Origin: an uncultured archaeon
Lineage (GTDB): Archaea > Asgardarchaeota > Lokiarchaeia > Sigyniarchaeales > SOKP01
Assembly (NCBI GenBank): GCA_964388035.1
Contig: CAYLZE010000122.1
Span: 1-14,451 of the forward strand
Direction: 5' to 3'
DNA: 14,451 bases
In this document: positions 93 through 14,451 of the stretch, in pieces
Position numbering within the stretch: position 1 is the first letter of the stretch
How the letters are laid out: each line of letters opens with the position of its first letter
The notes under the pieces: generated by a model
Told to the model about the DNA's origin: nothing
The model's input: the letters and a program-made list of their open reading frames with translations, nothing else
The model's database searches: none
Made by a program: the position numbers and the translations under genes

Positions 93-1226
93 ATGGCTCA
101 ACCAATTGGATATAGAAAAGAAAAAGCAAGAGAGGTATTAAATAAACACAATATCGATCTTCTCATTGCTTCTTCTCCCGTAAATGTATTCTATACTACG
201 GGATTACCGGTACTTCATGTAGCACCCAATCCCATTCTCTATGTACTTTCAAATCAATATCCTAACTTGTCAATGGTTCAAAAGAATGGAGAGCTTAGTG
301 CCTTAATATGGTCTCTATATGATAGCGTGGAAGGATTCTCTTGGGTTCCTCCCAGTGAGGTAATTCGAGTAGGATCATTGGAAGGAGCGGTCAATACTCT
401 TTTAAAGAAGGTAAAAGATTTGGACATGGCAAGCAAAACGATAGGGTTGGAATCATTAATGCCTCGTTATCAATCCGAAGCTCTAAGAAAAGAGTTTCCC
501 AATGCTAAGTTCGTGGAGGGAGATGCCGCATTTTTAGACATGCGATTAGTTAAAACCGAAGAAGAAGTGAGGAGAATCAGAAAGTCAACGGAAGTAGCAG
601 AAAAAGCCATTCAAGCTTGCATAAATGCAACGGAATTAAATCTCCCTGACACGAAATTATTGGAAACTGCACGGAGGACAATTGTAAATGAGGGAGCATG
701 GGGCTGGGATCATTTAACCATGAGCATTGGTCCCTCGGATCCAGAAGCGCCTGGTTTAGGTATACCTGTTACTCCCAACGACTTAGTTAGATTCGATATC
801 GGAGCAGTGTGGGAAGGATATATTTCTGATTTAAGTAGAGGTGTTGTGATTGGAGAAGTTCCGGCAAAAGCTAAAGAAGCCATGGATATCATGATTCAAG
901 TTCAGGAATATTGTGTCGACAATATTAAGCCCGGCATAAATGCAAATAAGTTAAGTGAGGATGCAAGAAATTATTTAAAATCTATTTCCAAGAGAGGTTT
1001 TTATTTGATAACGGGACATAGCATAGGCTTAGAATGTGAGGAAGCTCATCTTTTCGGGCCAACGGGAGGAATGGATGTTCCTTTTGAAGAAAACATGGTG
1101 TTAGATATTGAAGTATGGTTGAATGTTAGAGGACAAGGCTTAGTAGGGGTGGAAGATTGTTATAGAATAACTAGTAATGGATGTGAAGCACTATCAACCC
1201 TTGATAAGGAAATTGTAGTTAAATAA
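93..1226 (+). CDS. M24 (pita-bread fold) metallohydrolase, Xaa-Pro peptidase/creatinase-like, with creatinase_N domain
   Basis: N-terminal 'IDLLIASSPVNVFYTTG', linker 'DMRLVKTEEEV', and five metal ligands in 'FDIGAVWEGYISDLSR' (D,D), 'GHSIGLE' (H), 'DIEVW' (E), 'GVEDCY' (E). Confidence 0.88.
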   Translation: MAQPIGYRKEKAREVLNKHNIDLLIASSPVNVFYTTGLPVLHVAPNPILYVLSNQYPNLSMVQKNGELSALIWSLYDSVEGFSWVPPSEVIRVGSLEGAVNTLLKKVKDLDMASKTIGLESLMPRYQSEALRKEFPNAKFVEGDAAFLDMRLVKTEEEVRRIRKSTEVAEKAIQACINATELNLPDTKLLETARRTIVNEGAWGWDHLTMSIGPSDPEAPGLGIPVTPNDLVRFDIGAVWEGYISDLSRGVVIGEVPAKAKEAMDIMIQVQEYCVDNIKPGINANKLSEDARNYLKSISKRGFYLITGHSIGLECEEAHLFGPTGGMDVPFEENMVLDIEVWLNVRGQGLVGVEDCYRITSNGCEALSTLDKEIVVK

Positions 1227-1325
1227 ACAATTTTTATTAATTTCTAAAATAAAAAATATTATAATAATTAATGGAATTTAGTTATTTTAAACAATAAATA
1301 ATCCAAGAATTTAGTTCAAGTAAAT

Positions 1326-1330
1326 GGTGA
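1326..1330 (+). promoter_or_regulatory. Shine-Dalgarno GGTGA for SDR-1
   Basis: GGTGA followed by a 5-nt spacer and ATG 1336, which favours 1336 over 1324 as the start. Confidence 0.6.
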
Positions 1331-1335
1331 TTAAA

Positions 1336-2112
1336 ATGAAATTGAAAGACAAGATCGTAATAATGACGGGGGCAGCTTCAGGAATTGGAAGATCTACTGC
1401 TATATTGTTTGCAAAAGAGGGGGCAACATTGATTCTATCGGATATAAATGAACAGGAGCTAAAAAAAACTCTTGATATGATCAAGGAAGGGAAAGATAGA
1501 GTCACTATCATGAAACTAGACGTGCGGAAGCCAGAAGAAGTAAAAAAGATGATAGATAAAACGGTCGAAAAATATGGAAGAATTGACGTATTAGTAGTCA
1601 ATGCGGGAGTCGTGCGTGTTGGACCCGTAGAAGATTTTCCTGATGAAGATTATAATCTTTTAATAGATGTGAATCTAAAGGGAACGCATTATACTTGCAA
1701 ATATGCGGTTCCCTACTTTAAAAAGCAGAAATTTGGCTCAATTATCACGTTAGCTAGCGTAGCTGCTCATATAGGGCAAGTTGCTCATGCTAATTATTGC
1801 TCCACCAAAGCAGGAGTATTGGGATACACCAGAGCTCTTGCATTAGATTTAGCCCCCTACAATGTTCGAGTAAATAGTGTTTCACCAGGAGCCACGGATA
1901 CTCCGATGTTACAGAGTGATGTGGGCAAGCAAGCGAGAGATAGAGGAGTACCATATGAGGAAGTTAAAAAAGAGTTTGAACAAGAAGGAGTCATGGGCAG
2001 ATGGGCTAAACCCGAAGAAATTGCGACAGGGATCTTATTTTTAGCAACAGAGGATTCATCCTACATGACGGGAGCCGACTTGCGTTTAGATGGAGGTTGG
2101 ACTACTCGATAA
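1336..2112 (+). CDS. Classical short-chain dehydrogenase/reductase (SDR-1), probably NAD(H)-dependent
   Basis: TGAASGIG Rossmann motif, Asp after beta-2 ('LSDIN'), NAG, catalytic Ser ('LASVAA'), YxxxK ('YCSTK'), 'VNSVSPG', C-terminal 'DGGW'. The ORF track starts at 1324; the SD and the matching N-terminus of SDR-2 (MKLKDK/MKLNDK) favour 1336. Confidence 0.93.
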   Translation: MKLKDKIVIMTGAASGIGRSTAILFAKEGATLILSDINEQELKKTLDMIKEGKDRVTIMKLDVRKPEEVKKMIDKTVEKYGRIDVLVVNAGVVRVGPVEDFPDEDYNLLIDVNLKGTHYTCKYAVPYFKKQKFGSIITLASVAAHIGQVAHANYCSTKAGVLGYTRALALDLAPYNVRVNSVSPGATDTPMLQSDVGKQARDRGVPYEEVKKEFEQEGVMGRWAKPEEIATGILFLATEDSSYMTGADLRLDGGWTTR

Positions 2113-2137
2113 TTAGGAAGCTCCGTAAAAATTGAAC

Positions 2138-2270
2138 TTTTTCTTATTTTTAATTTTAACACTAGCGATTTAGTAACGAACAAAAAATCTTCAATATAAG
2201 GAAAATAGAGTAAAAAAAGAGTTTACCTTAACTTTGAATGTTCCTAACTTCGCTTTGAAATGAACTCTTT
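2138..2270. terminator. Probable bidirectional termination zone between the convergent SDR genes
   Basis: T-rich tract 2138-2157 on + after SDR-1. On the minus strand an 8-bp inverted repeat (AAAGAGTT 2216-2223 / AACTCTTT 2263-2270) runs into a T7 tract (A7 at 2212-2218). Confidence 0.4.
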
Positions 2271-2280
2271 GGTTTTAAGT

Positions 2281-3027
2281 TCACATGGTCATTCCACCGT
2301 CGATGGATATGCTAGCACCCGTGGTAAATTCATTGCAAGCGAGAAATAGAACTCCTTCAGCGATTTCTTCGGGAGCTCCCAAACGGCCTAACTTTTGGCG
2401 GGCAATGAAATCTTGCCTTGCTTTCTGGGGGTCCTCAAATTTGGCCAATCTACCTGCTAAAGAAGGAGTGTCAGTAGTTCCTGGGCAAATAGCATTCACT
2501 CGTATTCCATCCTCTATATAATCTGTAGCCATTGCACGAGTCATGGATAAAACTGCTCCTTTCGATGCGGTATAAGCAGCGCGATCTTTTACACCTTTTA
2601 GTGCCACAGAAGAAGCATTATTTATGATAGTTCCCCTCGTCTTTTTCAAGTAAGGTATGGCATATTTGGAAACTAGATAGATCCCGCGCACGTTTACCGC
2701 CATGGTCCTGTCCCAATTTTCGGTTGAAATGCTATCTATGCTCCCGGGTATCACAATCCCGGCATTATTGAATAGAATATCGATTTTTCCAAAACGTTGA
2801 ACGCTTTCTTCTACTATTCTTTTAGCATCTTGTTCATTGGATACATCACCTTGAATAAATAGTGCCTCTCCACCGGAACTATTAATAGCATTCACTACTT
2901 TCATTCCCGATTTGGATATGGAATTGCAGCTTACTTTTGCCCCTTCTTTTGCAAATAACAACGCTGTTGCTTCTCCTATTCCAGCTCCTGCTCCCGTCAC
3001 AATTGCCACTTTATCGTTTAATTTCAT
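2281..3027 (-). CDS. SDR-2, BDH2/DHRS6-like hydroxy-acid or 2-keto-3-deoxy-sugar-acid dehydrogenase
   Basis: TGAGAGIG, NNAG, 'NASS', 'RAAYTASK'. The segment 'ICPGTTDTPSL...ARQDFIARQKLGRLG.PEEIA' resembles the BDH2/L-KDF dehydrogenase subfamily. The ORF track start is 3036; the second ATG at 3027 follows an SD-like GAGATGA. Confidence 0.9.
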   Translation of the reverse strand: MKLNDKVAIVTGAGAGIGEATALLFAKEGAKVSCNSISKSGMKVVNAINSSGGEALFIQGDVSNEQDAKRIVEESVQRFGKIDILFNNAGIVIPGSIDSISTENWDRTMAVNVRGIYLVSKYAIPYLKKTRGTIINNASSVALKGVKDRAAYTASKGAVLSMTRAMATDYIEDGIRVNAICPGTTDTPSLAGRLAKFEDPQKARQDFIARQKLGRLGAPEEIAEGVLFLACNEFTTGASISIDGGMTM

Positions 3028-3058
3028 TTCTCTCATCTCAGTTTAATATGATAACGTG

Positions 3059-3856
3059 TTAAATTCCAATAATTTTTCGGGCTTCAGAAGGATCTGCAAC
3101 TTCCCGCCCCATTTCATTGCTTATTTTAATCATTCGCTTGACAATTTCTGCGTTATTTTTAGCGGGAACACCTTTTTTTATAAAGGGATAATCTTCTGTT
3201 CCTACACGAACGTTTCCACCATGAGAGATTGCTAATGTTGCAATTTTTGTTTGATGTTCACCCATGATGCTCACCGTGTGCAAACATTTATCCGGAATGT
3301 ATTTAATTCTATGTAAATACTCATCTGCAGTTGCTGGTGACCATGTCCCTCCCGGCCAATTAAAGAACAAGGTGCAAATATAGGGAGGATCTAACAGTTT
3401 TCTTTCTATTAAATAATTCAAATTCCAATAAGAGCCCAGATGCCACACCTCAAATTCGGGTTTGATTTTAAATTGCCTGCATTTATTGCTATATTCTTCT
3501 AATTCTTTTATCGGATGAAGAACATCCACGATAACTTGAGTAAAATGCTCCGCATGATGATTAAGTATGATTGATAACATGTCAGGTCTTGCTTGAAAAT
3601 CCCCTTCTCTTTTTGGGATGGATTCACTGGACATTCCTGCTTGAATAATTATGTCACATCTTTCTCTTATTCTTTTAACTACTTCAACTTCTTCTCCTCT
3701 AGGTAAATGTACATGGGCTAGCGATGCTCCTGCCTCATAGCATTGCACCACATCTTCTATTAATTGATCGGTTGTTTGTGGCCAATTCTTTACATCAGGA
3801 TATATCCATGAATTAGCGGTAGTTATGGTCAAAACCATTTTCTCATTTTCAGACAT
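3059..3856 (-). CDS. Beta-keto acid cleavage enzyme (BKACE / DUF849 / Kce family)
   Basis: 'CYEAGASLAHVH' (Zn-binding HxH), 'KPEFEVW', 'GGNVRVGTEDY' (catalytic Arg, Zn-ligand Glu, Asp), 'NAEIV', C-terminal 'GREVADPSEARKIIGI'. Confidence 0.9.
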   Translation of the reverse strand: MSENEKMVLTITTANSWIYPDVKNWPQTTDQLIEDVVQCYEAGASLAHVHLPRGEEVEVVKRIRERCDIIIQAGMSSESIPKREGDFQARPDMLSIILNHHAEHFTQVIVDVLHPIKELEEYSNKCRQFKIKPEFEVWHLGSYWNLNYLIERKLLDPPYICTLFFNWPGGTWSPATADEYLHRIKYIPDKCLHTVSIMGEHQTKIATLAISHGGNVRVGTEDYPFIKKGVPAKNNAEIVKRMIKISNEMGREVADPSEARKIIGI

Positions 3857-3919
3857 TTATTTTTCTCTCTTTTTATTATTGGTTTATGTTTAATAGTGAA
3901 AGACTTGAATTTAAAATTT

Positions 3920-4957
3920 TTATCGAGACACTCTTCCGGAAGTATCTCCTCCCATTATGCTGAGTACTTCCTCCACCGAGACGAGATTAAAATCTCCGAT
4001 GATCGTATGTTTTAAACAAGAGGCGGCGGTCGCAAAATTTAAGGCACTTTGGTAATCATCTTTATAGGTCAATAATCCGTAGATTAATCCCGCACAGAAT
4101 GAATCTCCTCCTCCCACTCGATCTACCATGTGCGTTATATCGTATTGAGGAGCCATGTAGAGTTTATTTCCATCGTATAATACTGCCGACCACGTATTAT
4201 GACTTGCAGAAAGAGAGCCTCTCAGCGTTATTGCAACCTTTTTAAGATTTGGAAATATTTTCATTAAATTCTCGCATACATGTTTATATTTCTCGGGGTC
4301 CAACTTTCCAGAAGTGACATCTGTTTCAGGAGCCTTTATGCCAAAAACCTTTTCTGCATCCTCTTCATTTCCGATAGCAACATCACAGTATTTAACTAAT
4401 TCAGACATTATTTCTGAGGGTTTTTTTCCATATTTCCATAATTTACTCCTGTAATTTAAATCAGCGGAAATGGTGAGGTTCTTCTTTTTTGCAACTTTAA
4501 CTGCTTCTAAGCACAAATCCGCAAGATTTTGAGATATTGCCGGAGTAATTCCCGTAAAATGAAACCATTCGACATCATTGAATATCGTTTCCCAATCAAA
4601 CATTCCTACTTTAGCCGTAGAAATTGCTGAATTTGCTCTGTCATATATGACTTTACTTCCTCTGGTAGATGCGCCCATTTCAAGAAAATAGATGCCTAAT
4701 CGCTCCCCTCCCCTCATGATGTGGTCCACATTAACCCCATATTGACGTATGAATTGCAAGCACGCATCTCCAACATCATTGGCAGGTAATCTCGTGATGA
4801 AATCAACGGGGATTCCGAAATTTGCAAGGGAAACTGCAACATTTGCCTCTCCACCCCCGTATATCACGTCAAACGATCTTGCTTGAACAAATCTCTGAAA
4901 ACCGGGAGGAGCGAGTCTGAGCATGATCTCTCCGAATGTAACCACTCTTTTTTTCAA
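3920..4957 (-). CDS. kdgK: PfkB-family sugar kinase, 2-keto-3-deoxygluconate kinase type
   Basis: 'VTFGEIMLRL', 'GGGEANVA', 'YDRANSA', 'HFTGITPA', 'DLNYRSKLW', PfkB signature 'DRVGGGDSF', C-terminal 'SGRVSR'. TTG start preceded by GGGAG. Confidence 0.9.
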   Translation of the reverse strand: MKKRVVTFGEIMLRLAPPGFQRFVQARSFDVIYGGGEANVAVSLANFGIPVDFITRLPANDVGDACLQFIRQYGVNVDHIMRGGERLGIYFLEMGASTRGSKVIYDRANSAISTAKVGMFDWETIFNDVEWFHFTGITPAISQNLADLCLEAVKVAKKKNLTISADLNYRSKLWKYGKKPSEIMSELVKYCDVAIGNEEDAEKVFGIKAPETDVTSGKLDPEKYKHVCENLMKIFPNLKKVAITLRGSLSASHNTWSAVLYDGNKLYMAPQYDITHMVDRVGGGDSFCAGLIYGLLTYKDDYQSALNFATAASCLKHTIIGDFNLVSVEEVLSIMGGDTSGRVSR

Positions 4958-5108
4958 TCTTTCTCCCTTTTCCTTTTATTTTATAATTATTAAAATACCT
5001 ATTAGTATCTTATTTTCTAGATATTGTGAATGAGTTATAATGGAAGGTAATGAAAAAGATTATTTTAATTAATGGCATTTTGTAAGAATTGCTTGCATTC
5101 TTTTAAAA

Positions 5109-5131
5109 ATGGGGTAGAGATGGGGTAGAGA
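5109..5131. repeat. Perfect 11-bp tandem duplication (ATGGGGTAGAG x2)
   Basis: Units at 5109-5119 and 5120-5130, read directly, just past the GH20 stop codon. Confidence 0.85.
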
Positions 5132-5142
5132 CAGGAGGCAGT

Positions 5143-6756
5143 CTAAATTTCTCCTCTTGGTTGAGTAAATATGGTAAAAATGCCAAAAAGTGTTTTATAA
5201 GCAGGAGGATCTATTTCTTCCATCTTAGCATGTCCTGCACCTAATAATTGCAGTTTTTTATTGAACACTTTTAATCGATCTTTAAATGACTTATAATTTT
5301 TATTCCTTTTTAAGCTCCATCCTGTTTCCGCTACTGCCACCAATCTTGGAAATGCTTGCCAATACAATCTTTTCCTATTAGGAACCCATTCTGTCCAAAG
5401 AGGGGCTTCTATGCCAAGGACATTCTCGTGATATTCCTCCTCCAAGTTCTTTGGAATAGGTTCATAACGATAAGATTTTCTTAAAGGTGTGAATTCATAC
5501 TTATAGTCTAAGTATACATGCCCAAATTTTGAAAAAACCATGTTTCTCCCTTGTCTTAGGGCATTTATTATTTTTTTATTCCGCCCCATCCAATACTGGA
5601 TAATCACATCCTTTTGCAAACCTTCTTTTAAGATTTGATTCCATCCCATCGTCGCATGTTCCTTAGATGAAAGAAATTGGGCAATCCTATTGGTAAAATA
5701 GGGTTGTAATTCCTCTACATTTTTTAAATTCTCTTCTTGAATTCGCCTCTGGCAATCAAGACAATTTTTCCAGCGATCTTTAGGGACTTCATCTCCTCCA
5801 ATATGAATGATATTTGAAGGAAAGATTTCCATGACTTCTTGTAAAACATTCTCTAAAAACTGAAAGACTTTTTCTTTTCCTACACAGAATACATCTTTTT
5901 TAATTCCAAAAGTGTTAGGGATCTCAAAAGGACCTCCCGTGCAACTCAATTCGGGATACGCAGCAAGAGCAGCCATGCAATGCCCGGGCATTTCTATTTC
6001 AGGTATGATTTCAATAAATCTATCACTTGCATATGAGATGATTTCTTTAATATCCTCTTGTTTATAATGACCCTCATGGGGAGTTTCTTCAATTTTTTTG
6101 CTAATAAATCCCCCTACTTGAGTTCCTTTCCTTTTTGATCCAATTTCTATCAACTTAGGATACTGCTTGCTTTGAATGCGCCATCCTTGATCATCAGTGA
6201 GATGCCAATGAAAGATGTTCAGTTTCAAGAGAGCCATTATTTCAAGCATTGTTTTTACTATTTCTTTACCTTGGAAATGTCGACCTTCATCTAACATGAA
6301 CCCCCGCCAATTAAATCGGGGATAATCTTCAATTCTTAGATGCGGAAGAAAGATTTTGGAATTTTCGCTCATCTCGAAATTTATAAGATTATAGGGGAGG
6401 ATCTGTCGAAAAGTTTGAACACCATGATATAATCCAACGTCCTCCTTTCCAAGAATCTCGACTTTCTCTTCGGAGATACTCAGAAAATATCCTTCCTTAT
6501 CTATATTTAAATCTCTGTCAATCTGCAAGGTAATTTTATGGGAACCTTCTTCTTTCTCCTCGAGAGCCGAAACTTGGAGGTCAAGATTAAAAGCAGGTTT
6601 CAATAAGGTTTGAAGATATTCCCCGATTTTTTTAGCATCTGTGGGAACTTGAATGAAAAAGTCCTCAGTTAACTGCAATTCCCCTTTACCTTCCATGATT
6701 TTGACAGGCTGGGGAATTATTTTCACATTACCTATCACTTTTCTACTTGTAGACAT
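5143..6756 (-). CDS. GH20 beta-N-acetylhexosaminidase, no signal peptide
   Basis: 'IIPQP' start of the GH20b domain, 'EDYPRFNWRGFMLDEGRHF', 'HWHLTDDQGWR', 'PEIEMPGH', catalytic 'HIGGDEVP', 'YLDY', 'LWTEWV', 'FPRLVAVAETGW'. Confidence 0.95.
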   Translation of the reverse strand: MSTSRKVIGNVKIIPQPVKIMEGKGELQLTEDFFIQVPTDAKKIGEYLQTLLKPAFNLDLQVSALEEKEEGSHKITLQIDRDLNIDKEGYFLSISEEKVEILGKEDVGLYHGVQTFRQILPYNLINFEMSENSKIFLPHLRIEDYPRFNWRGFMLDEGRHFQGKEIVKTMLEIMALLKLNIFHWHLTDDQGWRIQSKQYPKLIEIGSKRKGTQVGGFISKKIEETPHEGHYKQEDIKEIISYASDRFIEIIPEIEMPGHCMAALAAYPELSCTGGPFEIPNTFGIKKDVFCVGKEKVFQFLENVLQEVMEIFPSNIIHIGGDEVPKDRWKNCLDCQRRIQEENLKNVEELQPYFTNRIAQFLSSKEHATMGWNQILKEGLQKDVIIQYWMGRNKKIINALRQGRNMVFSKFGHVYLDYKYEFTPLRKSYRYEPIPKNLEEEYHENVLGIEAPLWTEWVPNRKRLYWQAFPRLVAVAETGWSLKRNKNYKSFKDRLKVFNKKLQLLGAGHAKMEEIDPPAYKTLFGIFTIFTQPRGEI

Positions 6757-6944
6757 TTCAAGAATGTTTTTACGGATCTTTTTTTAAAATTCAATAACAT
6801 TCAGATTTAATCTTTTATAAATTCAAATTATTTTTAATATTTTTGAAAATACATTTTGAATATTTATTTGATTGAGCATAGAGAAACATTCTTTAATGCT
6901 AAAAAAATATATGATTATAATTACTAAGGAATTCTTTCTCACCC

Positions 6945-7757
6945 ATGCGTCCTTTATGGTTTGTACATTTATTACAAAAAACATTCCCTAATATTAAAGT
7001 AATTGCCAAATTGACCAACCTTCCCATATTAGGAAAGATCATTGATAAAATCTTTTTCTCGGGCGATGATATCCTTTATCTACCATTAGATAAGGTAATA
7101 TCTATCGATCAATCCATGGGAGAATATGAGGAAATGGTATTACCTTCTCATATTTTGGAACATTTTGTGGAAGAAGCGTCCTATCATTGGATCATGAATT
7201 TTTGTATTTGTAGAGAATCAATGCATTGTCAAGATTACCCTATTGAGTTGGGATGCTTATTCTTGGGAAAAAGCGTCCTGGAAATTAATCCTAAGTTGGG
7301 AAAATTAGTTTCCAAGGAAGAGGCATTGAATCATTTAAAAAAATGTAGAGAAGCGGGCTTAGTTCACATGATAGGAAGAAATAAATTAGATAAGCAGTGG
7401 CTAGGTGTGAAGGACGGGACTCAGCTTTTATCCATCTGTAATTGTTGCGCTTGTTGCTGCCTGTGGCGAATCTCTCCCCTCTTAAATCCTAAAATAGGAG
7501 CAAAAGTTAAAAGAATGTCGGGAATAAGCTTTTTAGTAAATGATAATTGCATAGGGTGCGGTACCTGTACTAAAAATATATGTTTTGTAGATGCAATCCA
7601 CCTTGTTAAAAATAAAGCCGTGATCAGTGATGATTGCAGAGGATGTGGTAGATGCATGGATATTTGTCCTCAAAAGGCAATTGAAATGACGATTTCGGAT
7701 GAATTTTCCATCGATAACGCGATTAAAGAAATAAGTGAACTTGTATTTTTAAAATAA
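6945..7757 (+). CDS. Cys-rich Fe-S protein with C-terminal 2x[4Fe-4S] ferredoxin domain, function unknown
   Basis: C-terminal 'CIGCGTCTKNIC' and 'CRGCGRCMDICP'. Upstream domain contains 'CICRESMHC', 'GCLFLG', 'GLVH', 'ICNCCACCC'. Confidence 0.85.
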   Translation: MRPLWFVHLLQKTFPNIKVIAKLTNLPILGKIIDKIFFSGDDILYLPLDKVISIDQSMGEYEEMVLPSHILEHFVEEASYHWIMNFCICRESMHCQDYPIELGCLFLGKSVLEINPKLGKLVSKEEALNHLKKCREAGLVHMIGRNKLDKQWLGVKDGTQLLSICNCCACCCLWRISPLLNPKIGAKVKRMSGISFLVNDNCIGCGTCTKNICFVDAIHLVKNKAVISDDCRGCGRCMDICPQKAIEMTISDEFSIDNAIKEISELVFLK

Positions 7758-7792
7758 TATATGTTTCAGATAAATAATAATAATTAAATTTT

Positions 7793-8908
7793 ATGAAAAT
7801 TAACGAATTCAAACTCGAGGAATTCTTTGCTAAATACGAGTTTTCGGTAAAATATGTGTTATGTGCCTCTGATTGTGAATCTTTCTCTATTGAAGAATTA
7901 CTTTCACTGGAACGTGATGGGGAAGAGAATTTTAAAAGGTTAAGGTTAGGTTATACAGAAACTCAAGGACATCCCGAATTAAGAGAAGAAATTAGTAAAT
8001 TATACGACGATATTAATAAAGAGGAAGTTCTAGTTTTTTCAGGAGCAGAAGAGGGAATTTTTATTTTTTTCAATACTTTTCTCTCAAAAGGAGACCACGT
8101 GATTGTCCAATTTCCTGCATATCAATCGCTATTCGAAATTGCTAATTCTCTCGGATGTGAAGTTACAAAATGGGAAATGAACGAGGAAAACAAGTGGGAT
8201 CTGGATATTAACTTTTTAGTTTCCAGCATAAAGAAAAATACCAAAGTAATCGTCATTAATTCTCCTCATAATCCCACAGGATCCCTTTTCTCAAAAATGA
8301 AAAATCAAGAAATAATTAAGATTGCTCTTGAGAATGATATTCGTGTTTTCTCGGATGAAGTATATAGATTCTCCGAGCATGATGAAAAGGATAGGTTGAA
8401 AGGAGCTTGCGATTTCTCCCCAAAATGTCTCTCTTTAGGGGTAATGTCAAAATCTTTTGGATTACCGGGACTAAGAATTGGATGGATTGCTTCGAAAGAT
8501 GAAGCGCTCCTAAGGAAAATGGTTTCATTTAAAAACTATACTACAATATGCAATAGCGCACCAAGTGAATATCTTTCCATACTAGCTCTAAGAAATAAAG
8601 TTGTCATCTTAAAAAGAAACAGAAATATCATTTTAGAAAATCTCAAGGTATTGGACATCTTTTTTAAAAACCATGATGATATTTTTGAATGGATAAGGCC
8701 AAAAGCAGGACCTATAGCTTTTCCAAGACTCATTATCGAAGAGGATATCGAACAGTTCTGTTTAAATTTATTGAGAGAAAAAAGGGTATTATTAATGCCC
8801 GGCACGAATTTTGATTTTGGTATGAAACATTTTAGAATAGGATTTGGAAGAAAGAACATGCCTGAGGCTTTAAACCTATTTGATAACTATTTAAAAAGAT
8901 ATAATTAA
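7793..8908 (+). CDS. PLP-dependent fold-type I (class I/II) aminotransferase-like enzyme
   Basis: 'LGYTETQG..ELRE', 'NSPHNPTG', 'SDEVY', PLP-lysine motif 'SKSFGLPGLRIGW', 'HFRIGFG'. It starts 35 nt after the Fe-S gene, so the two are probably co-transcribed. Confidence 0.9.
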   Translation: MKINEFKLEEFFAKYEFSVKYVLCASDCESFSIEELLSLERDGEENFKRLRLGYTETQGHPELREEISKLYDDINKEEVLVFSGAEEGIFIFFNTFLSKGDHVIVQFPAYQSLFEIANSLGCEVTKWEMNEENKWDLDINFLVSSIKKNTKVIVINSPHNPTGSLFSKMKNQEIIKIALENDIRVFSDEVYRFSEHDEKDRLKGACDFSPKCLSLGVMSKSFGLPGLRIGWIASKDEALLRKMVSFKNYTTICNSAPSEYLSILALRNKVVILKRNRNIILENLKVLDIFFKNHDDIFEWIRPKAGPIAFPRLIIEEDIEQFCLNLLREKRVLLMPGTNFDFGMKHFRIGFGRKNMPEALNLFDNYLKRYN

Positions 8909-8919
8909 CACTTAAGTTA

Positions 8920-10392
8920 TTATCTATCCGGAACTACATCAGAGGGTTCCCAAAAAATATTATTAATTTTCAAGTTTTTGATGCGAGTTCTTAATTTTAA
9001 TGCAGATACCGCCTGAACGGTTTCTTTAATGCTATGAAATACGGGAATGCTACTCAACTCTAAGGATTCGATGATGAGGGCGTACTTTTCCACATATGGC
9101 ATGAAAGTCACAATTGGCTTCTTTTTATACGTAACTATATTTGCGATCCTCCTCCCAATTTGGAAGCTAATATTCGGGGGATACGGTAATAAAAGCAAAA
9201 TGATACATTCAATCCTTTCTATCTCCGATAAATATTGGACCATGCTTTCAATATCTCGATCCAGCACCGACCCCGTCAAATCAATAGGGTTGTTGAATGA
9301 AGCAATATCACGAGCAACTTCATTCAAAATCTCATACATTTCCTTTTTTTCTTTATCCGTGAACTTTACGGGAGTTAACCCGTACTTTTTTAACATGTCC
9401 GCACAAATGACACCATGACCCCCTGAAACGGATAAGATCACTACATTACCGTAGATGATTTCATTCTTGCCAAACGGCTGTTTTTTCTCCTTTTTGTAGG
9501 ATAACACATCATAGACCTTCAGAAAGGTAAGTAACTCTTGCTCTGAATGAGGGCGTATGATGTAATTTTGCTTCAAAGCAGCAAATAAAATTTTAGAATT
9601 ACCTGCTAAACTCGCGGTATGGGATTGAGTAGCAATGCGACCTTGATCAGTAATCCCGCCAAAAAATGTAATAATCATATCGTCGGATTCCTTGGCAAGT
9701 TGTAAAAACTTTCTTGCCTTATTCTCCTTAAATCCCTCCAAATAAAAGGCAATATTACTAGACTCCTTGTCAACCTTACTAAAATATTCTAAAAGCATGG
9801 ACTCATCTACCACGGCACGGTTCCCGATAGAAACTGCGGTAGAAACTCCAATATTTCGTTCTTTAAATTTTACGAAGAATTGATCGATGAGCACCCCTCC
9901 TGATTGGCTAATTAATGCAACACTTCCTTTAGGGGGACGAGTTATGCGCTCTGTAGGGAGAAAAATAGTATCAACTAGAGGAGGAGCATATACTCCAATA
10001 CAATTTGGACCCAGCACCGCAATATCATTATCAAAAGCTAAACGCTGAAGTTTCTCTTGTCTTTTAATACCTTCTCCTCCGATTTCGGCAAAACCGCCCC
10101 CAATAATCACGCAAGAGGGAATGTGTAAATCTACACACTGCTGAATATAATCTAACGTATCGTCAGCTCCCACTGCAATAACTAATAAATCTGGAATTTC
10201 CGATAGTTTATCCAAGCGTTCATATAAGGAGACTCCTTCAATTTCACCACCTTGAGGGTGAATTCCATATACTTTTACGTTCATCTCGAATTCATTTTTT
10301 AATAAAATGATTCTTCCAGGGCTAAGAGGATTGCTTCGAGAGACGCCTATGACCGCCATGATTTCAGGTTTGAATAATTTTTCTAAATTCAT
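8920..10392 (-). CDS. acdA: ADP-forming acyl-CoA synthetase, alpha subunit (CoA-binding and ligase domains, no ATP-grasp)
   Basis: 'LFKPEIMAVIGVS', 'GGFAE', 'GPNCIG', 'SQSGG', 'SIGNRA', 'YLEG', phospho-His loop 'QSHTASLAG', 'SGGHGV..AD', 'NPIDLTG'. 490 aa fits an alpha chain alone. Confidence 0.88.
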   Translation of the reverse strand: MNLEKLFKPEIMAVIGVSRSNPLSPGRIILLKNEFEMNVKVYGIHPQGGEIEGVSLYERLDKLSEIPDLLVIAVGADDTLDYIQQCVDLHIPSCVIIGGGFAEIGGEGIKRQEKLQRLAFDNDIAVLGPNCIGVYAPPLVDTIFLPTERITRPPKGSVALISQSGGVLIDQFFVKFKERNIGVSTAVSIGNRAVVDESMLLEYFSKVDKESSNIAFYLEGFKENKARKFLQLAKESDDMIITFFGGITDQGRIATQSHTASLAGNSKILFAALKQNYIIRPHSEQELLTFLKVYDVLSYKKEKKQPFGKNEIIYGNVVILSVSGGHGVICADMLKKYGLTPVKFTDKEKKEMYEILNEVARDIASFNNPIDLTGSVLDRDIESMVQYLSEIERIECIILLLLPYPPNISFQIGRRIANIVTYKKKPIVTFMPYVEKYALIIESLELSSIPVFHSIKETVQAVSALKLRTRIKNLKINNIFWEPSDVVPDR

Positions 10393-10704
10393 CTTTCTTA
10401 TTGTTATGGGTTATTTCAAGTTCATCTAACTTTCGAGAGCATTTCATTTCCGGATCTTTTGGTCCATGAGTATCGGGAAGGATACAGACTACATGATAAC
10501 CGGAAATTTATTTATTTTCTCCCTAATTATTAGAGATTCATCAAGAATTTGAGTATATTTTTTGGTCTTCTTTCTTTTCGGTACTTTTCCAATTCAATAT
10601 TTACTATACTCAAAATCATATTTCAATATTAAATTAAAGAAACCTTTAATTATTTAGTTTCAGTATTTAAGATATTAAAATGAAAAGGGGAAAGTAAAGA
10701 AGAG

Positions 10705-10860
10705 ATGAAAACAGTTATATAAGAAAACTATGAAGCCCCATATGTTCTTCATCTTAAAGAAATAGATAACCCACTACCCAGAGATGATGAAATCCTCATT
10801 AAAATACATGCTACCTCAAGTATATCAATTCCAGCAGGATTTTTTTTTTCTAAATATTAA
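10705..10860 (+). pseudogene. 5' remnant of an MDR-family (zinc-binding ADH / quinone oxidoreductase-like) gene
   Basis: Manual translation gives [37 protein letters not shown]. This follows the MDR N-terminal pattern MKA(I/V)xYxxYGxPxVLxLxE(V/I)xxPxPxxxE(V/I)L(I/V)K(V/I)xA. In-frame TAA at 10720-10722; resemblance ends near 10818. Confidence 0.8.
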
Positions 10861-10962
10861 TTGTAGATTTTAATTATAAAATCTAGCAATAAATCTTAAA
10901 TAATTACATTCTTATTATACTACTAATATAATACAATTTAAACAAAATAGAACCAAAAAAAA

Positions 10963-12768: not shown

Positions 12769-14451
12769 GTGATAATTATTAATTCAAAAAACTTCTTAGA
12801 GCAAATAACAGAAGAAACCGAGGAAGGGCAATATAAAAACATTGGCCGCTTGGTAAGAAAAGCGAAAAGAGAGAACTATTCGAAGGAAGATATCGTAAAA
12901 GCTCTTTCTGAAGGTATAAAAAGTGCTAGTGATCGCTACAAAACCAAGGGCATGTACCTTGATGATATTGTTAAAGCAGCGGCGGCATTTGAAGTGGGTG
13001 CTCAATCACTAGGACTCAATTTGGAGGAAAAAAAAAGACCCGAACAACGAGTTGTTATAGGGGTGATGGGAGGACCTTGGACTATTGGTTCGAGCATTGT
13101 TGCATCCAATTTACGGGCAAATGGTTTTGAAGTAATAGATGCTGGCTCCGATATCACTCCAGAAATGATTGCTAAAACTGCAGCACAGTCAGGAGCCCGC
13201 ATTGTAGCTTCAGCCATTTATTTAATGCAAACAGAGCCCGATGTCGCGAAATTAGAAGAAGAATTATGGAAAACTGGTATTCGTCATAAAGTTAAAACTA
13301 TTCTTAGTGGACCCGCAGGATCAAGAACTCTTGCTGAGAAATATAATGTGGATGCTTATATGGAAAATGTAAATGATCTTATAATCAAAGTAAAAGAATT
13401 TTCCGAAGAATTAAAAACAGAGATGACCCCTTATGAAAGGGTAATGACTTCCGTAAAGCATGAAGAACCGGATAGAGTACCTTTCATGCCTTTTGCTCAA
13501 ACTTTTTGTGCTAATTTTGCGGGAATCGCTTTTTCAGAATACGTGAGTAAAGCAGAGAAATTTTTAGAGGGTCAAATGAAAGCTTACAATGCTTTTGGCT
13601 GGGATGCGTTATGTTTTTCTTCAGATGTAGGAATGTATGCTGGTGCACTAGGAGCAAAAATAGCATTTCCTCATGATGATGTACCGCGTATCGTTGAGCC
13701 CCTTTTACATCATGACTCGGTCTATAAAGATTTCCAAAAGTTATCCCTTCCAGATCCCTGGAAAGCCGGTCGTTTAACAGAATCTATAAAAGCAATTGAA
13801 CTTGCCAAAAAAGAATTAAAAGGGGAGGTCCCCATAATTGGATGGATAGAAGGCCCCTTTCAGGGCGTTAGCTTGTTGGCCGGGGCTAATCACTTGATGC
13901 TTTTCTACGTTTTAGATCATCCCGATGAATTCAAAGAAATTCTCGATTGGTATGCTGATTTTCAAATCGAAATCGTTAAAGCCATGCATTCTGCTGGCGC
14001 AGATATCATTGGAGTGGGTGAAACTGCCGCCTATTTCATGTCACCCACCTTCTTTAAGCAATATTGTCTGGAACCCGAAAAAAGACTCTGTAAGGCCATA
14101 CGAGAATTAGGAATGATTCCGTTAATACATTGCTGTGGATATGTTCCTCAATGCATCCCTTTTGCTGAAGAAACTAATCCGGGAGGTGCCATTCAATTTG
14201 ATTATCAAGTAAATTTAACATGGGCAAAAAAAGAACTTAAAAAGAAGGTGACTATTATGGGAAACTTGAATTATAATAAGTTAACAAAAGCAACCGTCAA
14301 GGAAGTATATGAAGATTGCCAAGCGCATCTAAGGATTGCAGCAGAAGGAGGGGGATACTGGTTAGCTTTTGGATGTGAGATTCCACGCGAATTACCAATC
14401 GAGAACATGAGAACTATCATGCGAGCCACAAAAACGGTCGGTAAGTATTAA
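12769..14451 (+). CDS. Fusion of corrinoid-protein domains (helical cap plus B12-binding Rossmann, non-canonical ligand loop) with an MtaA/CmuA-type (URO-D fold) methyltransferase
   Basis: Cap 'DIVKALSEGI..ASDRYKTKGMYLDDIVKAA'. B12 domain 'VVIG...IG..IVASNLRANGFEVIDAGSDITPE'. The URO-D-fold domain starts at M219 'MTPYERV...EEPDRVP' (13423) and contains 'GRL', 'EGPF', the Zn motif H454-C-C456 and C536 ('FGCEIP'). Exact start uncertain (12769-12778). Confidence 0.88.
   Translation: MIIINSKNFLEQITEETEEGQYKNIGRLVRKAKRENYSKEDIVKALSEGIKSASDRYKTKGMYLDDIVKAAAAFEVGAQSLGLNLEEKKRPEQRVVIGVMGGPWTIGSSIVASNLRANGFEVIDAGSDITPEMIAKTAAQSGARIVASAIYLMQTEPDVAKLEEELWKTGIRHKVKTILSGPAGSRTLAEKYNVDAYMENVNDLIIKVKEFSEELKTEMTPYERVMTSVKHEEPDRVPFMPFAQTFCANFAGIAFSEYVSKAEKFLEGQMKAYNAFGWDALCFSSDVGMYAGALGAKIAFPHDDVPRIVEPLLHHDSVYKDFQKLSLPDPWKAGRLTESIKAIELAKKELKGEVPIIGWIEGPFQGVSLLAGANHLMLFYVLDHPDEFKEILDWYADFQIEIVKAMHSAGADIIGVGETAAYFMSPTFFKQYCLEPEKRLCKAIRELGMIPLIHCCGYVPQCIPFAEETNPGGAIQFDYQVNLTWAKKELKKKVTIMGNLNYNKLTKATVKEVYEDCQAHLRIAAEGGGYWLAFGCEIPRELPIENMRTIMRATKTVGKY

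Follow-up and report, generated by a model that had tools for sequence, protein, structure and literature searches.

A conserved Asgard archaeal gene module links a divergent BKACE-family enzyme with a predicted 2-keto-3-deoxy-acid dehydrogenase and a 2-keto-3-deoxygluconate kinase

No known prokaryotes are closer relatives of eukaryotes than the Asgard archaea, and what these organisms use as sources of carbon has mostly been deduced from annotation. Here we examine a window of 14,451 bp, which is the entire contig C122 (CAYLZE010000122.1) of the genome of an uncultured Lokiarchaeia archaeon (GCA_964388035.1, hereafter G000). The names borne by close homologs place this genome in Promethearchaeota/Lokiarchaeia, and a search of it for archaeal SSU rRNA found none. 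In the window lie three genes on the minus strand that encode a 2-keto-3-deoxygluconate (KDG) kinase (kdgK), a divergent member of the family of enzymes that cleave beta-keto acids (BKACE), and a short-chain dehydrogenase (SDR-2). The features of this locus that are relevant to the analysis are as follows.

93..1226, plus strand: M24 (creatinase/prolidase-fold) metallohydrolase with PF00557 and PF01321 domains; module member, in an operon with SDR-1
1324..2112, plus strand: SDR-1, a second short-chain dehydrogenase, convergent with SDR-2; module member
2281..3036, minus strand: SDR-2, short-chain dehydrogenase of the L-2-keto-3-deoxyfuconate (L-KDF) dehydrogenase/BDH2 type; 251 amino acids, SDR 215 bits
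3059..3856, minus strand: divergent BKACE-family (DUF849) zinc TIM-barrel enzyme; 265 amino acids, PF05853
3920..4957, minus strand: kdgK, PfkB-family KDG kinase; 345 amino acids, TTG start
4958..5142, minus strand: 185 nt of AT-rich intergenic DNA preceding kdgK; contains a purine-rich stretch and, ∼30 nt ahead of the TTG, a TATA-like box; probably the promoter from which the kdgK–BKACE–SDR-2 unit is read
5143..6756, minus strand: GH20 beta-N-acetylhexosaminidase (PF00728, 359 bits) upstream of kdgK; recurrent neighbor, not a core member

An earlier note on this DNA had described kdgK, BKACE, and SDR-2 as co-directional genes with short gaps, and the open reading frames (ORFs) bear this out. 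The gap between kdgK and BKACE is 63 nt, and that between BKACE and SDR-2 is 22 nt, or 31 nt if counted from the second ATG. The same note reported that eda, the gene for 2-keto-3-deoxy-6-phosphogluconate (KDPG) aldolase, is missing from the window. A profile search agrees, in that the 12 larger ORFs gave no match to any aldolase family. The window is a single contig of a 5.47-Mb genome (211 contigs, 96.7% complete, 7.3% contamination), so this absence says nothing about the genome as a whole.

The neighborhood is widely conserved, as the earlier note had proposed. Of 41 related genomes, the same 13 and no others contain orthologs of BKACE, SDR-2, SDR-1, and M24. These 13 fall in eight of the 23 genera represented, a distribution that is a pattern rather than a statistic because related genomes are not independent samples. 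Orthologs were accepted at E ≤ 1e-70 for SDR-2, E ≤ 1e-80 for M24, and E ≤ 1e-90 for SDR-1, and the BKACE orthologs are 63–80% identical. Thus SDR-2 co-occurs with BKACE in 13 of 13 genomes, versus 0 of the remaining 28. A Gfo/Idh/MocA-family oxidoreductase (Gfo), which flanks M24 elsewhere, is present in 12 of the 13 module genomes, and that of G000 would lie just beyond the end of contig C122.

Gene order was compared in 80 Asgard species genomes by using the BKACE locus and its flanks (∼1 Mb in total), where the upstream side of BKACE was assessable in 66 loci and the downstream side in 73. Directly upstream of BKACE is kdgK in 35 of the 66 loci and eda in four more, and directly downstream is SDR-2 in 35 of the 73, with a median gap of 43 nt. 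The spacing between kdgK and BKACE (median ∼28 nt) persists across genomes labeled Lokiarchaeia, Thor-, Hod-, and Hermodarchaeota. This gene order is far from chance. In 34 loci the flanks reach 6 kb or more in both directions, and among these SDR-1, M24, and Gfo are each found in 24, SDR-2 in 22, and kdgK in 18. The functional unit is larger than three genes and includes M24, SDR-1, and Gfo, which the earlier note missed. Around this unit are variable companions that include PIG-L deacetylase genes (27 of 80 loci), GH20 next to kdgK (at least 14 of 80), and genes for sulfatases, MFS_2 transporters, GH3, GH5, SCP2, a URO-D-like protein, and a protein of 296 amino acids. The module sits in Asgard glycan-utilization islands.

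The window BKACE matches PF05853 with 165.8 bits (cut-off 24.8; profile positions 17–274). Its public annotation is '3-keto-5-aminohexanoate cleavage protein', a name not supported by the equivalog score, as it falls under every NCBIfam equivalog cut-off, including that of the namesake enzyme Kce (NF052387; 145.3 vs. 382). Moreover, the residue that serves as the amino-group ligand in Kce, E14, is Ser in the window protein. The zinc ligands H48, H50, and E221 align with H46, H48, and E230 of Kce, E136 occupies the position of the catalytic base (E143 of Kce, E171 of BKACE15), and R217 and D222 correspond to the R226/D231 pair. The roles of these residues are those reported for BKACE15 (PMC11961710). 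All six residues are invariant in 80 orthologs. In the alignment, the carboxylate-binding loop, which holds S82, T106, and N108 in Kce, is altered: The 'IST' segment that holds S82 is deleted in the HMMER alignment, T106 is replaced by S95, and N108 is matched by N99, which follows a two-residue insertion and is kept as Asn in 67 of the 80 orthologs.

An AlphaFold2 model of the protein (pLDDT 94.2) is a TIM barrel that Foldseek matches to 3LOT, 3C6C, 8RIP/9HNF, and 2Y7D with TMq values of 0.83–0.90. The model also matches the CoA-independent cis-epoxysuccinate hydrolases 5ZMU and 5ZMY, which have the same fold, and the next structural neighbor is ObcA, which condenses acetyl-CoA with oxaloacetate. 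Judging from the model and the conserved residues, the enzyme is still expected to hold on its zinc a substrate that carries a carboxylate and is 1,3-oxygenated, and to take a proton from the carbon in between. G000 holds eight BKACE-family genes, located on contigs C2, C166 (a tandem pair), C33, C176, C131, C164, and C122. The seven others score 271–314 bits against the Pfam profile, whereas the window copy, at 165 bits, is the divergent one.

When the substrate-binding half of SDR-2 is compared with the PDB, the leading matches are 4DQX (115 bits), human BDH2 (2AG5, 102 bits), 4GH5 (98 bits), and 8Y4J/8XWK/8Y11 (96 bits). The third-ranked of these, 4GH5, is a short-chain dehydrogenase outside the L-KDF dehydrogenase/BDH2 subfamily, and 4DQX has been placed close to the type-2 L-KDF dehydrogenases (PMC11199699). 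Structures of the L-KDF 4-dehydrogenase of Herbaspirillum huttiense reported in 2024 identify Arg148, Thr183, Arg192, and Arg214 as substrate ligands, together with a hydrophobic residue at the position of Trp252 (PMC11199699). SDR-2 has R152, T187, R196, and R213 at the first four positions, which is the type-1 'R-T-R-R' pattern, and M249 at the fifth. These four residues are invariant in 41 orthologs, as are the catalytic residues S142, Y155, and K159, and M249 is kept in 38 of the 41. Enzymes of the L-KDF dehydrogenase family oxidize C4 of L-KDF, L-2-keto-3-deoxygalactonate, D-2-keto-3-deoxypentonate (D-KDP), and D-KDG to 2,4-diketo-3-deoxy acids. SDR-2 should likewise be a 2-keto-3-deoxy-sugar-acid 4-dehydrogenase, and it is predicted to make 2,4-diketo-3-deoxy acids. 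The earlier note had left it open whether SDR-2 presents BKACE with a beta-keto or a 2,4-diketo acid. The 2,4-diketo variant agrees well with the ligand residues of SDR-2.

SDR-1 resembles beta-hydroxyacid and hydroxyacyl dehydrogenases and does not have the arginine set of SDR-2. For 3-hydroxybutyrate dehydrogenase, we take the carboxylate ligands to be Gln94, His144, Lys152, and Gln196 (Pseudomonas fragi numbering). An alignment of SDR-1 to 3V2H reads V, A, H, and D at these four presumed positions, and SDR-1 falls below the curated cut-offs of PRK12429 (243.8 vs. 258) and TIGR01963 (229.6 vs. 307). We therefore rejected SDR-1 as an acetoacetate/3-hydroxybutyrate dehydrogenase, an assignment that would have suggested acetoacetate as the product of BKACE. 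In the M24 protein, all five metal ligands (D235, D246, H309, E340, and E354) are present and invariant in 52 orthologs.

The kinase scores 122 bits against PF00294 and 530 bits against the kinase half of NF041633, an NCBIfam model for an aldolase/kinase fusion, and it aligns over its full length (residues 4–345) with the KDG kinase of Thermotoga maritima (2AFB, 361 bits). It does not reach the Haloferax equivalog NF041332 (222 vs. 440). A tblastn search shows that G000 carries a single kdgK, which is the window copy, and a single eda, a normal gene on contig C17 (C17:15527-16108; PF01081, 223 bits). The eda gene is embedded in a sugar cluster (C17:12000-18000; L042:6059-12934) with genes for a cupin-type GPI-like protein, an ADP-ribosylglycohydrolase, and an MFS_2 transporter. 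The same cluster includes a 600-amino-acid fusion of a D-2-hydroxyacid dehydrogenase and a metallo-beta-lactamase domain, and the nearest non-Asgard relatives of BKACE are likewise flanked by 2-hydroxyacid dehydrogenase and cupin genes.

Orthologs of the kinase are found in 27 of the 41 related genomes, including all 13 that carry the module. The kinase gene is adjacent to eda in 12 of the 41, and among the 14 kinase-bearing genomes that lack the BKACE module it lies directly beside eda in nine. The order kdgK–eda–BKACE–SDR-2 occurs in three genomes (G009, G019, and G013) and on one contig labeled Thorarchaeota. As far as can be judged from its sequence, kdgK is an ordinary KDG kinase of the TM0067 type that feeds the Eda of the genome. 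These data do not support several proposals of the earlier note. A pathway without KDPG aldolase is contradicted by the normal eda of G000, which KdgK appears to serve, a circumstance that the earlier note had itself listed as counting against its proposal, and by the relatives that hold eda inside the operon. Use of BKACE as an aldolase substitute is likewise at odds with those relatives, in which BKACE and Eda share one operon, with eda sitting between kdgK and BKACE. The proposal that the kinase acts on the substrate or product of BKACE finds no support, given the type of the kinase, its wider distribution, and its position beside eda in genomes lacking the module.

Other genes for uronate metabolism are present elsewhere in G000. 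A UxaC gene (671 bits) follows a gene for a 327-amino-acid SDR (C7:13990-16590; L063:6991-9589), and genes for a UxaA-like dehydratase, a DHDPS-like aldolase, and an IlvD/EDD dehydratase stand in a row on contig C1 (C1:99704-103600; L064:4705-8608). UxuA and KduI were not found in G000. The UxaC–SDR and UxaA-like/IlvD-EDD genes could supply KDG to the kinase of the window.

A version of the module also exists outside Asgard archaea. On a 2.77-Mb contig with 67% GC (L065, positions 219-10898), a BKACE gene whose product is 47% identical to that of the window lies in the order FGGY kinase, 2-hydroxyacid dehydrogenase, class II aldolase, two sulfatases, ABC ATPase, BKACE, SDR, M24, Gfo. The SDR gene overlaps the BKACE stop codon, and its product is 40% identical to SDR-1 and only 35% identical to SDR-2. 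The order M24–Gfo–BKACE–SDR-1 is repeated on further GC-rich, apparently bacterial metagenome contigs. Thus, outside Asgard, BKACE is paired with an SDR of the SDR-1 type and not of the SDR-2 type, a point that the earlier note missed, and among the sequences seen here SDR-2 and kdgK accompany the core only in Asgard. By this distribution, M24, Gfo, BKACE, and SDR-1 form the ancient core. Linkage of M24 to genes of the BKACE subfamily is seen in Asgard, in L065 with its relatives, and in L059, which are separate lineages. The FGGY kinase, D-2-hydroxyacid dehydrogenase, and class II aldolase trio of L065 resembles the enzymes of tetronate (C4 acid-sugar) or fuculose catabolism, which hints that the BKACE product in L065 may be a C4 acyl-CoA.

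We consider the following reading the best available and give it a probability of about one-half: the substrate that BKACE cleaves is a 1,3-dicarbonyl sugar acid, which its SDR partners produce, and KdgK and Eda form a phosphorylative branch from the same 2-keto-3-deoxy-acid node. The genes would make up a conserved catabolic module in which kdgK, in some relatives eda, BKACE, and SDR-2 converge with SDR-1 and M24 and are joined by Gfo. SDR-2 would oxidize C4 of a 2-keto-3-deoxy sugar acid of the L-KDF, KDG/2-keto-3-deoxygalactonate (KDGal), or KDP type to the 2,4-diketo-3-deoxy acid. BKACE would then split this product on its zinc site by enolate (Claisen/retro-Claisen) chemistry, either hydrolytically or with transfer of the acyl part to CoA. 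In doing so it would stand in for the FAH-family hydrolase of the bacterial nonphosphorylative L-fucose and pentose routes. SDR-1, Gfo, and M24 would be an older partner set, common with bacteria, whose probable task is to provide either the acid or a second beta-keto substrate. The order in this older set might be sugar dehydrogenase (Gfo), hydrolase (M24), 3- or 4-dehydrogenase (SDR-1), and BKACE, as in the oxidative deoxyribose operon. Because KdgK would share the 2-keto-3-deoxy-acid node with SDR-2, the operon could hold the entries to both a phosphorylative and an oxidative branch. We infer each substrate and the direction of flux, whereas gene content, synteny, phyletic coupling, and residue conservation are observed.

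On three lines of evidence, BKACE is the best candidate for the enzyme that splits the 2,4-diketo-3-deoxy acid: its phyletic and positional coupling to SDR-2, the predictable chemistry of SDR-2, and the lack of an FAH gene nearby. No FAH gene was found in any of the 80 module neighborhoods (∼1 Mb). The distribution of FAH is also uncorrelated with the module, in that none was found in G002, only a fragment is present in G001, and the single FAH gene of G000 is on contig C24. An FAH hydrolase was therefore rejected as a hidden partner. Known sugar-acid dehydratases were rejected as hidden cluster partners as well, since no IlvD/EDD or UxaA-like gene occurs in the 80 neighborhoods.

Several points weigh against this reading. 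The same lack of a dehydratase means that the 2-keto-3-deoxy acid would have to come from outside the cluster. The presence of kdgK in all 13 module genomes is not explained by the model, nor are the kinase and aldolase of other families beside the L065 module. An enzyme of the SDR-2 type is missing from the bacterial-type core, which means that the ancestral partner of BKACE cannot have been SDR-2. The roles given to M24, Gfo, and SDR-1 are guesses, and 2,4-diketo acids are not among the classical substrates of BKACE. Furthermore, the family includes the CoA-independent cis-epoxysuccinate hydrolase, and thus the fold does not fix the chemistry.

Four of these points, namely the missing dehydratase, the guessed roles of M24, Gfo, and SDR-1, the presence of kdgK in all 13 module genomes, and the kinase and aldolase of L065, feed an alternative in which the BKACE-fold enzyme acts upstream of KdgK. 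Here it would be a zinc-dependent dehydratase, ammonia-lyase, or isomerase that makes KDG or KDGal. In one such route, GH20 and PIG-L would release a hexosamine, Gfo would oxidize it to the hexosaminate, and the BKACE-fold enzyme would dehydrate and deaminate the acid. SDR-1 and SDR-2 would then interconvert C4 epimers (KDGal to KDG) via the 2,4-diketo acid, and KdgK and Eda would complete the route. This arrangement fits the placement of kdgK or kdgK–eda directly upstream of BKACE (39 of 66 loci). It would also provide the 2-keto-3-deoxy acid that SDR-2 needs even though no known dehydratase is found in the neighborhoods, and the kinase and aldolase that flank the L065 module are non-homologous to KdgK and Eda. 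The PIG-L and GH20 genes of many loci are in keeping with a hexosamine substrate, N-acetylglucosamine (GlcNAc) and N-acetylgalactosamine (GalNAc) differ at C4, which is the target carbon of SDR-2, and zinc-assisted C–O cleavage next to a carboxylate exists in the fold, as cis-epoxysuccinate hydrolase demonstrates. However, several unprecedented activities would be needed together. To abstract the alpha-proton from a plain carboxylate is far more difficult than the beta-keto-acid chemistry of the family, the two residues that serve the beta-oxo group (R217 and D222) are invariant, and SDR-1 does not have the arginine ligands of 2-keto-3-deoxy-acid dehydrogenases. In addition, G000 has other sources of KDG in UxaC with its SDR, the UxaA-like protein, and four IlvD/EDD paralogs. 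We regard this alternative as unlikely, but as the main competitor.

One form of this alternative takes the BKACE-fold enzyme to catalyze no CoA-dependent cleavage but to be a new zinc-dependent (amino)sugar-acid dehydratase/ammonia-lyase that forms KDG or KDGal from hexosaminates, and the module to be a redox-neutral route from GlcNAc or GalNAc to KDG that is independent of pyridoxal phosphate (PLP). The enzymes would act in the order GH20 and PIG-L, Gfo, M24, the BKACE-like lyase, C4 epimerization by SDR-1/SDR-2, and KdgK with Eda. This version seems to us distinctly improbable. If it were true, Asgard archaea living on glycosaminoglycan-like glycans would have a PLP-independent hexosamine route that merges with the uronate route at the level of KDG. 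More generally, if BKACE makes KDG, both a new chemistry for the fold and a new hexosamine pathway would be involved.

It is also possible, although improbable, that the genes share an island and not a pathway. KdgK would then serve a uronate branch, the BKACE module would process a different sugar from the same glycan (sulfated or N-acetylated), and the two would sit together only through coregulation. The distribution of the kinase does differ from that of the module (27 vs. 13 of 41 genomes), in 27 of the 66 assessable loci the position directly upstream of BKACE is not taken by kdgK or eda, and the islands are variable in their GH20, GH3, GH5, sulfatase, MFS_2, and PIG-L genes. The UxaC–SDR and UxaA-like genes of the genome would be able to make KDG for such a branch. 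However, a connection between the two parts is suggested by the short kdgK–BKACE spacing, which persists across four groups of Asgard labels, and SDR-2 and KdgK both act on 2-keto-3-deoxy acids.

Replacement of KDPG aldolase by BKACE, with direct cleavage of KDPG or KDG, is scarcely credible. In its favor, the window has no aldolase gene, eda is not next to kdgK in nine module genomes, and no PF01081 match was found in the 92% complete genome G024. Against it, G024 carries four DHDPS-family genes as possible KD(P)G aldolases, KDPG does not belong to the beta-keto or the 1,3-dicarbonyl acids, and G000 has a normal eda on C17 (223 bits). The kdgK–eda–BKACE–SDR-2 order in relatives, which puts eda and BKACE in one operon, has already largely refuted the idea. 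A phloroglucinol-type pathway, which combines two SDRs, a ring hydrolase, and BKACE, was also rejected, as dihydrophloroglucinol cyclohydrolase belongs to the 'cyclase' family and not to M24 (PMC10470551).

Several additional genes were noted in or near the module. The 296-amino-acid protein (the length is approximate) is encoded in 11 of the 34 fully flanked loci. Its gene recurs within the module, where it either follows BKACE directly or precedes M24, and no Pfam, NCBIfam, or PDB sequence match to it was found. One copy is at L045:11150-12040. G000 holds two 70%-identical copies on contig C43 (C43:11704-12591 and C43:14264-15151) and a paralog on C33 (C33:35496-36374). This protein is a candidate enzyme for the lactonase or dehydratase step that the module lacks. 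Contig C33 carries a paralogous mini-set (C33:3348-5276 and C33:30926-36374), in which a BKACE paralog (31% identity) lies beside an SDR gene, and paralogs of M24 (60%), Gfo (53%), and the 296-amino-acid protein (47%) are located ∼26 kb from it. URO-D-like genes with a weak Pfam match (L044:5866-7032 and L045:9781-10911) are directly downstream of BKACE in 11 of the 73 other Asgard loci. Three contigs labeled Ignavibacteria, Nanopelagicaceae, and Dehalococcoidia (L094, L113, and L144) encode BKACE proteins 67–73% identical to those of Asgard in the Asgard gene order, for which mis-binning is more likely than transfer.

Within the window, a gene for an alpha-type ADP-forming acyl-CoA synthetase (8920-10392) lies 4 kb from the unit and would suit ATP recovery from an acyl-CoA product. 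It was rejected as a module member because it is a neighbor in just two of the 80 loci. The end of the window (12769-14451) encodes a fusion of a corrinoid domain and URO-D (MT2-like) that runs off the contig.

At least 80 Asgard species genomes carry this module of five to six genes, and apparently bacterial contigs carry its core as well. Its key enzyme, automatically annotated as a lysine-fermentation protein, is here tied to the breakdown of sugar acids and glycans, and a systematic mis-annotation would be corrected whether BKACE cleaves 2,4-diketo-3-deoxy acids or makes KDG. If BKACE cleaves 2,4-diketo-3-deoxy acids, it would be a nonhomologous replacement of the FAH hydrolase, and the energy of the C–C bond might be kept as acyl-CoA. 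In the literature that could be searched, no connection of BKACE with Asgard archaea or with KDG metabolism was found, nor any paper on Kce in Asgard archaea or on fucose and sulfatases in Lokiarchaeota.

We rate the module as a variant of known oxidative sugar-acid routes. Relative to the Kce/BKACE family (PF05853; Kce structures 2Y7D-G and Paracoccus denitrificans BKACE15 structures 8RIO, 8RIP, and 9HNF), the window BKACE has the same TIM barrel, HxH...E zinc site, catalytic Glu, and Arg/Asp pair. In contrast, its carboxylate-binding loop is remodeled, and it is ∼24% identical to the solved BKACE structures. At 265 amino acids it is ∼45 residues shorter than BKACE15 (310) and 3LOT (314), and near the length of Kce.

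The kinase and aldolase resemble the end-steps of the semiphosphorylative Entner–Doudoroff and uronate pathways, as represented by T. maritima TM0067 and TM0066. The kinase is close to the TM0067 type, and Eda is encoded in the genome and, in relatives, in the operon. Unlike in T. maritima, the kinase gene of G000 is in a predicted operon with BKACE and a 2-keto-3-deoxy-acid dehydrogenase, and eda is on another contig.

The oxidative deoxyribose/deoxyribonate pathway relies on a lactonase–SDR–BKACE operon in Pseudomonas simiae and Paraburkholderia (PMC6365646). The logic is alike, in that a sugar dehydrogenase, a hydrolase, and an SDR lead to a beta-keto acid that is passed to BKACE, and MFS transporters are nearby. 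However, the sugar dehydrogenase is a molybdoenzyme in the deoxyribose pathway and Gfo here, and the hydrolase here is M24. The Asgard module also has two SDRs, one of which is of the 2-keto-3-deoxy-acid type, it lies in a glycan context (GH20, PIG-L, and sulfatase), and its BKACE has low similarity to characterized members.

Route III for nonphosphorylative L-fucose and pentose catabolism in H. huttiense and Xanthomonas combines an L-KDF 4-dehydrogenase with an FAH-family L-2,4-diketo-3-deoxyfuconate hydrolase (PMC11199699; PMC6336799). SDR-2 agrees with the dehydrogenase of this route in its fold, its closest solved relatives, and all of its substrate-ligand residues, and in both systems a candidate sugar dehydrogenase, here Gfo, and a hydrolase accompany it. 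The Asgard cluster differs in that it has no FAH hydrolase, known lactonase family, or dehydratase, its host is an anaerobic archaeon, and a KDG kinase is joined to the operon. In the place of the C–C hydrolase it has BKACE.

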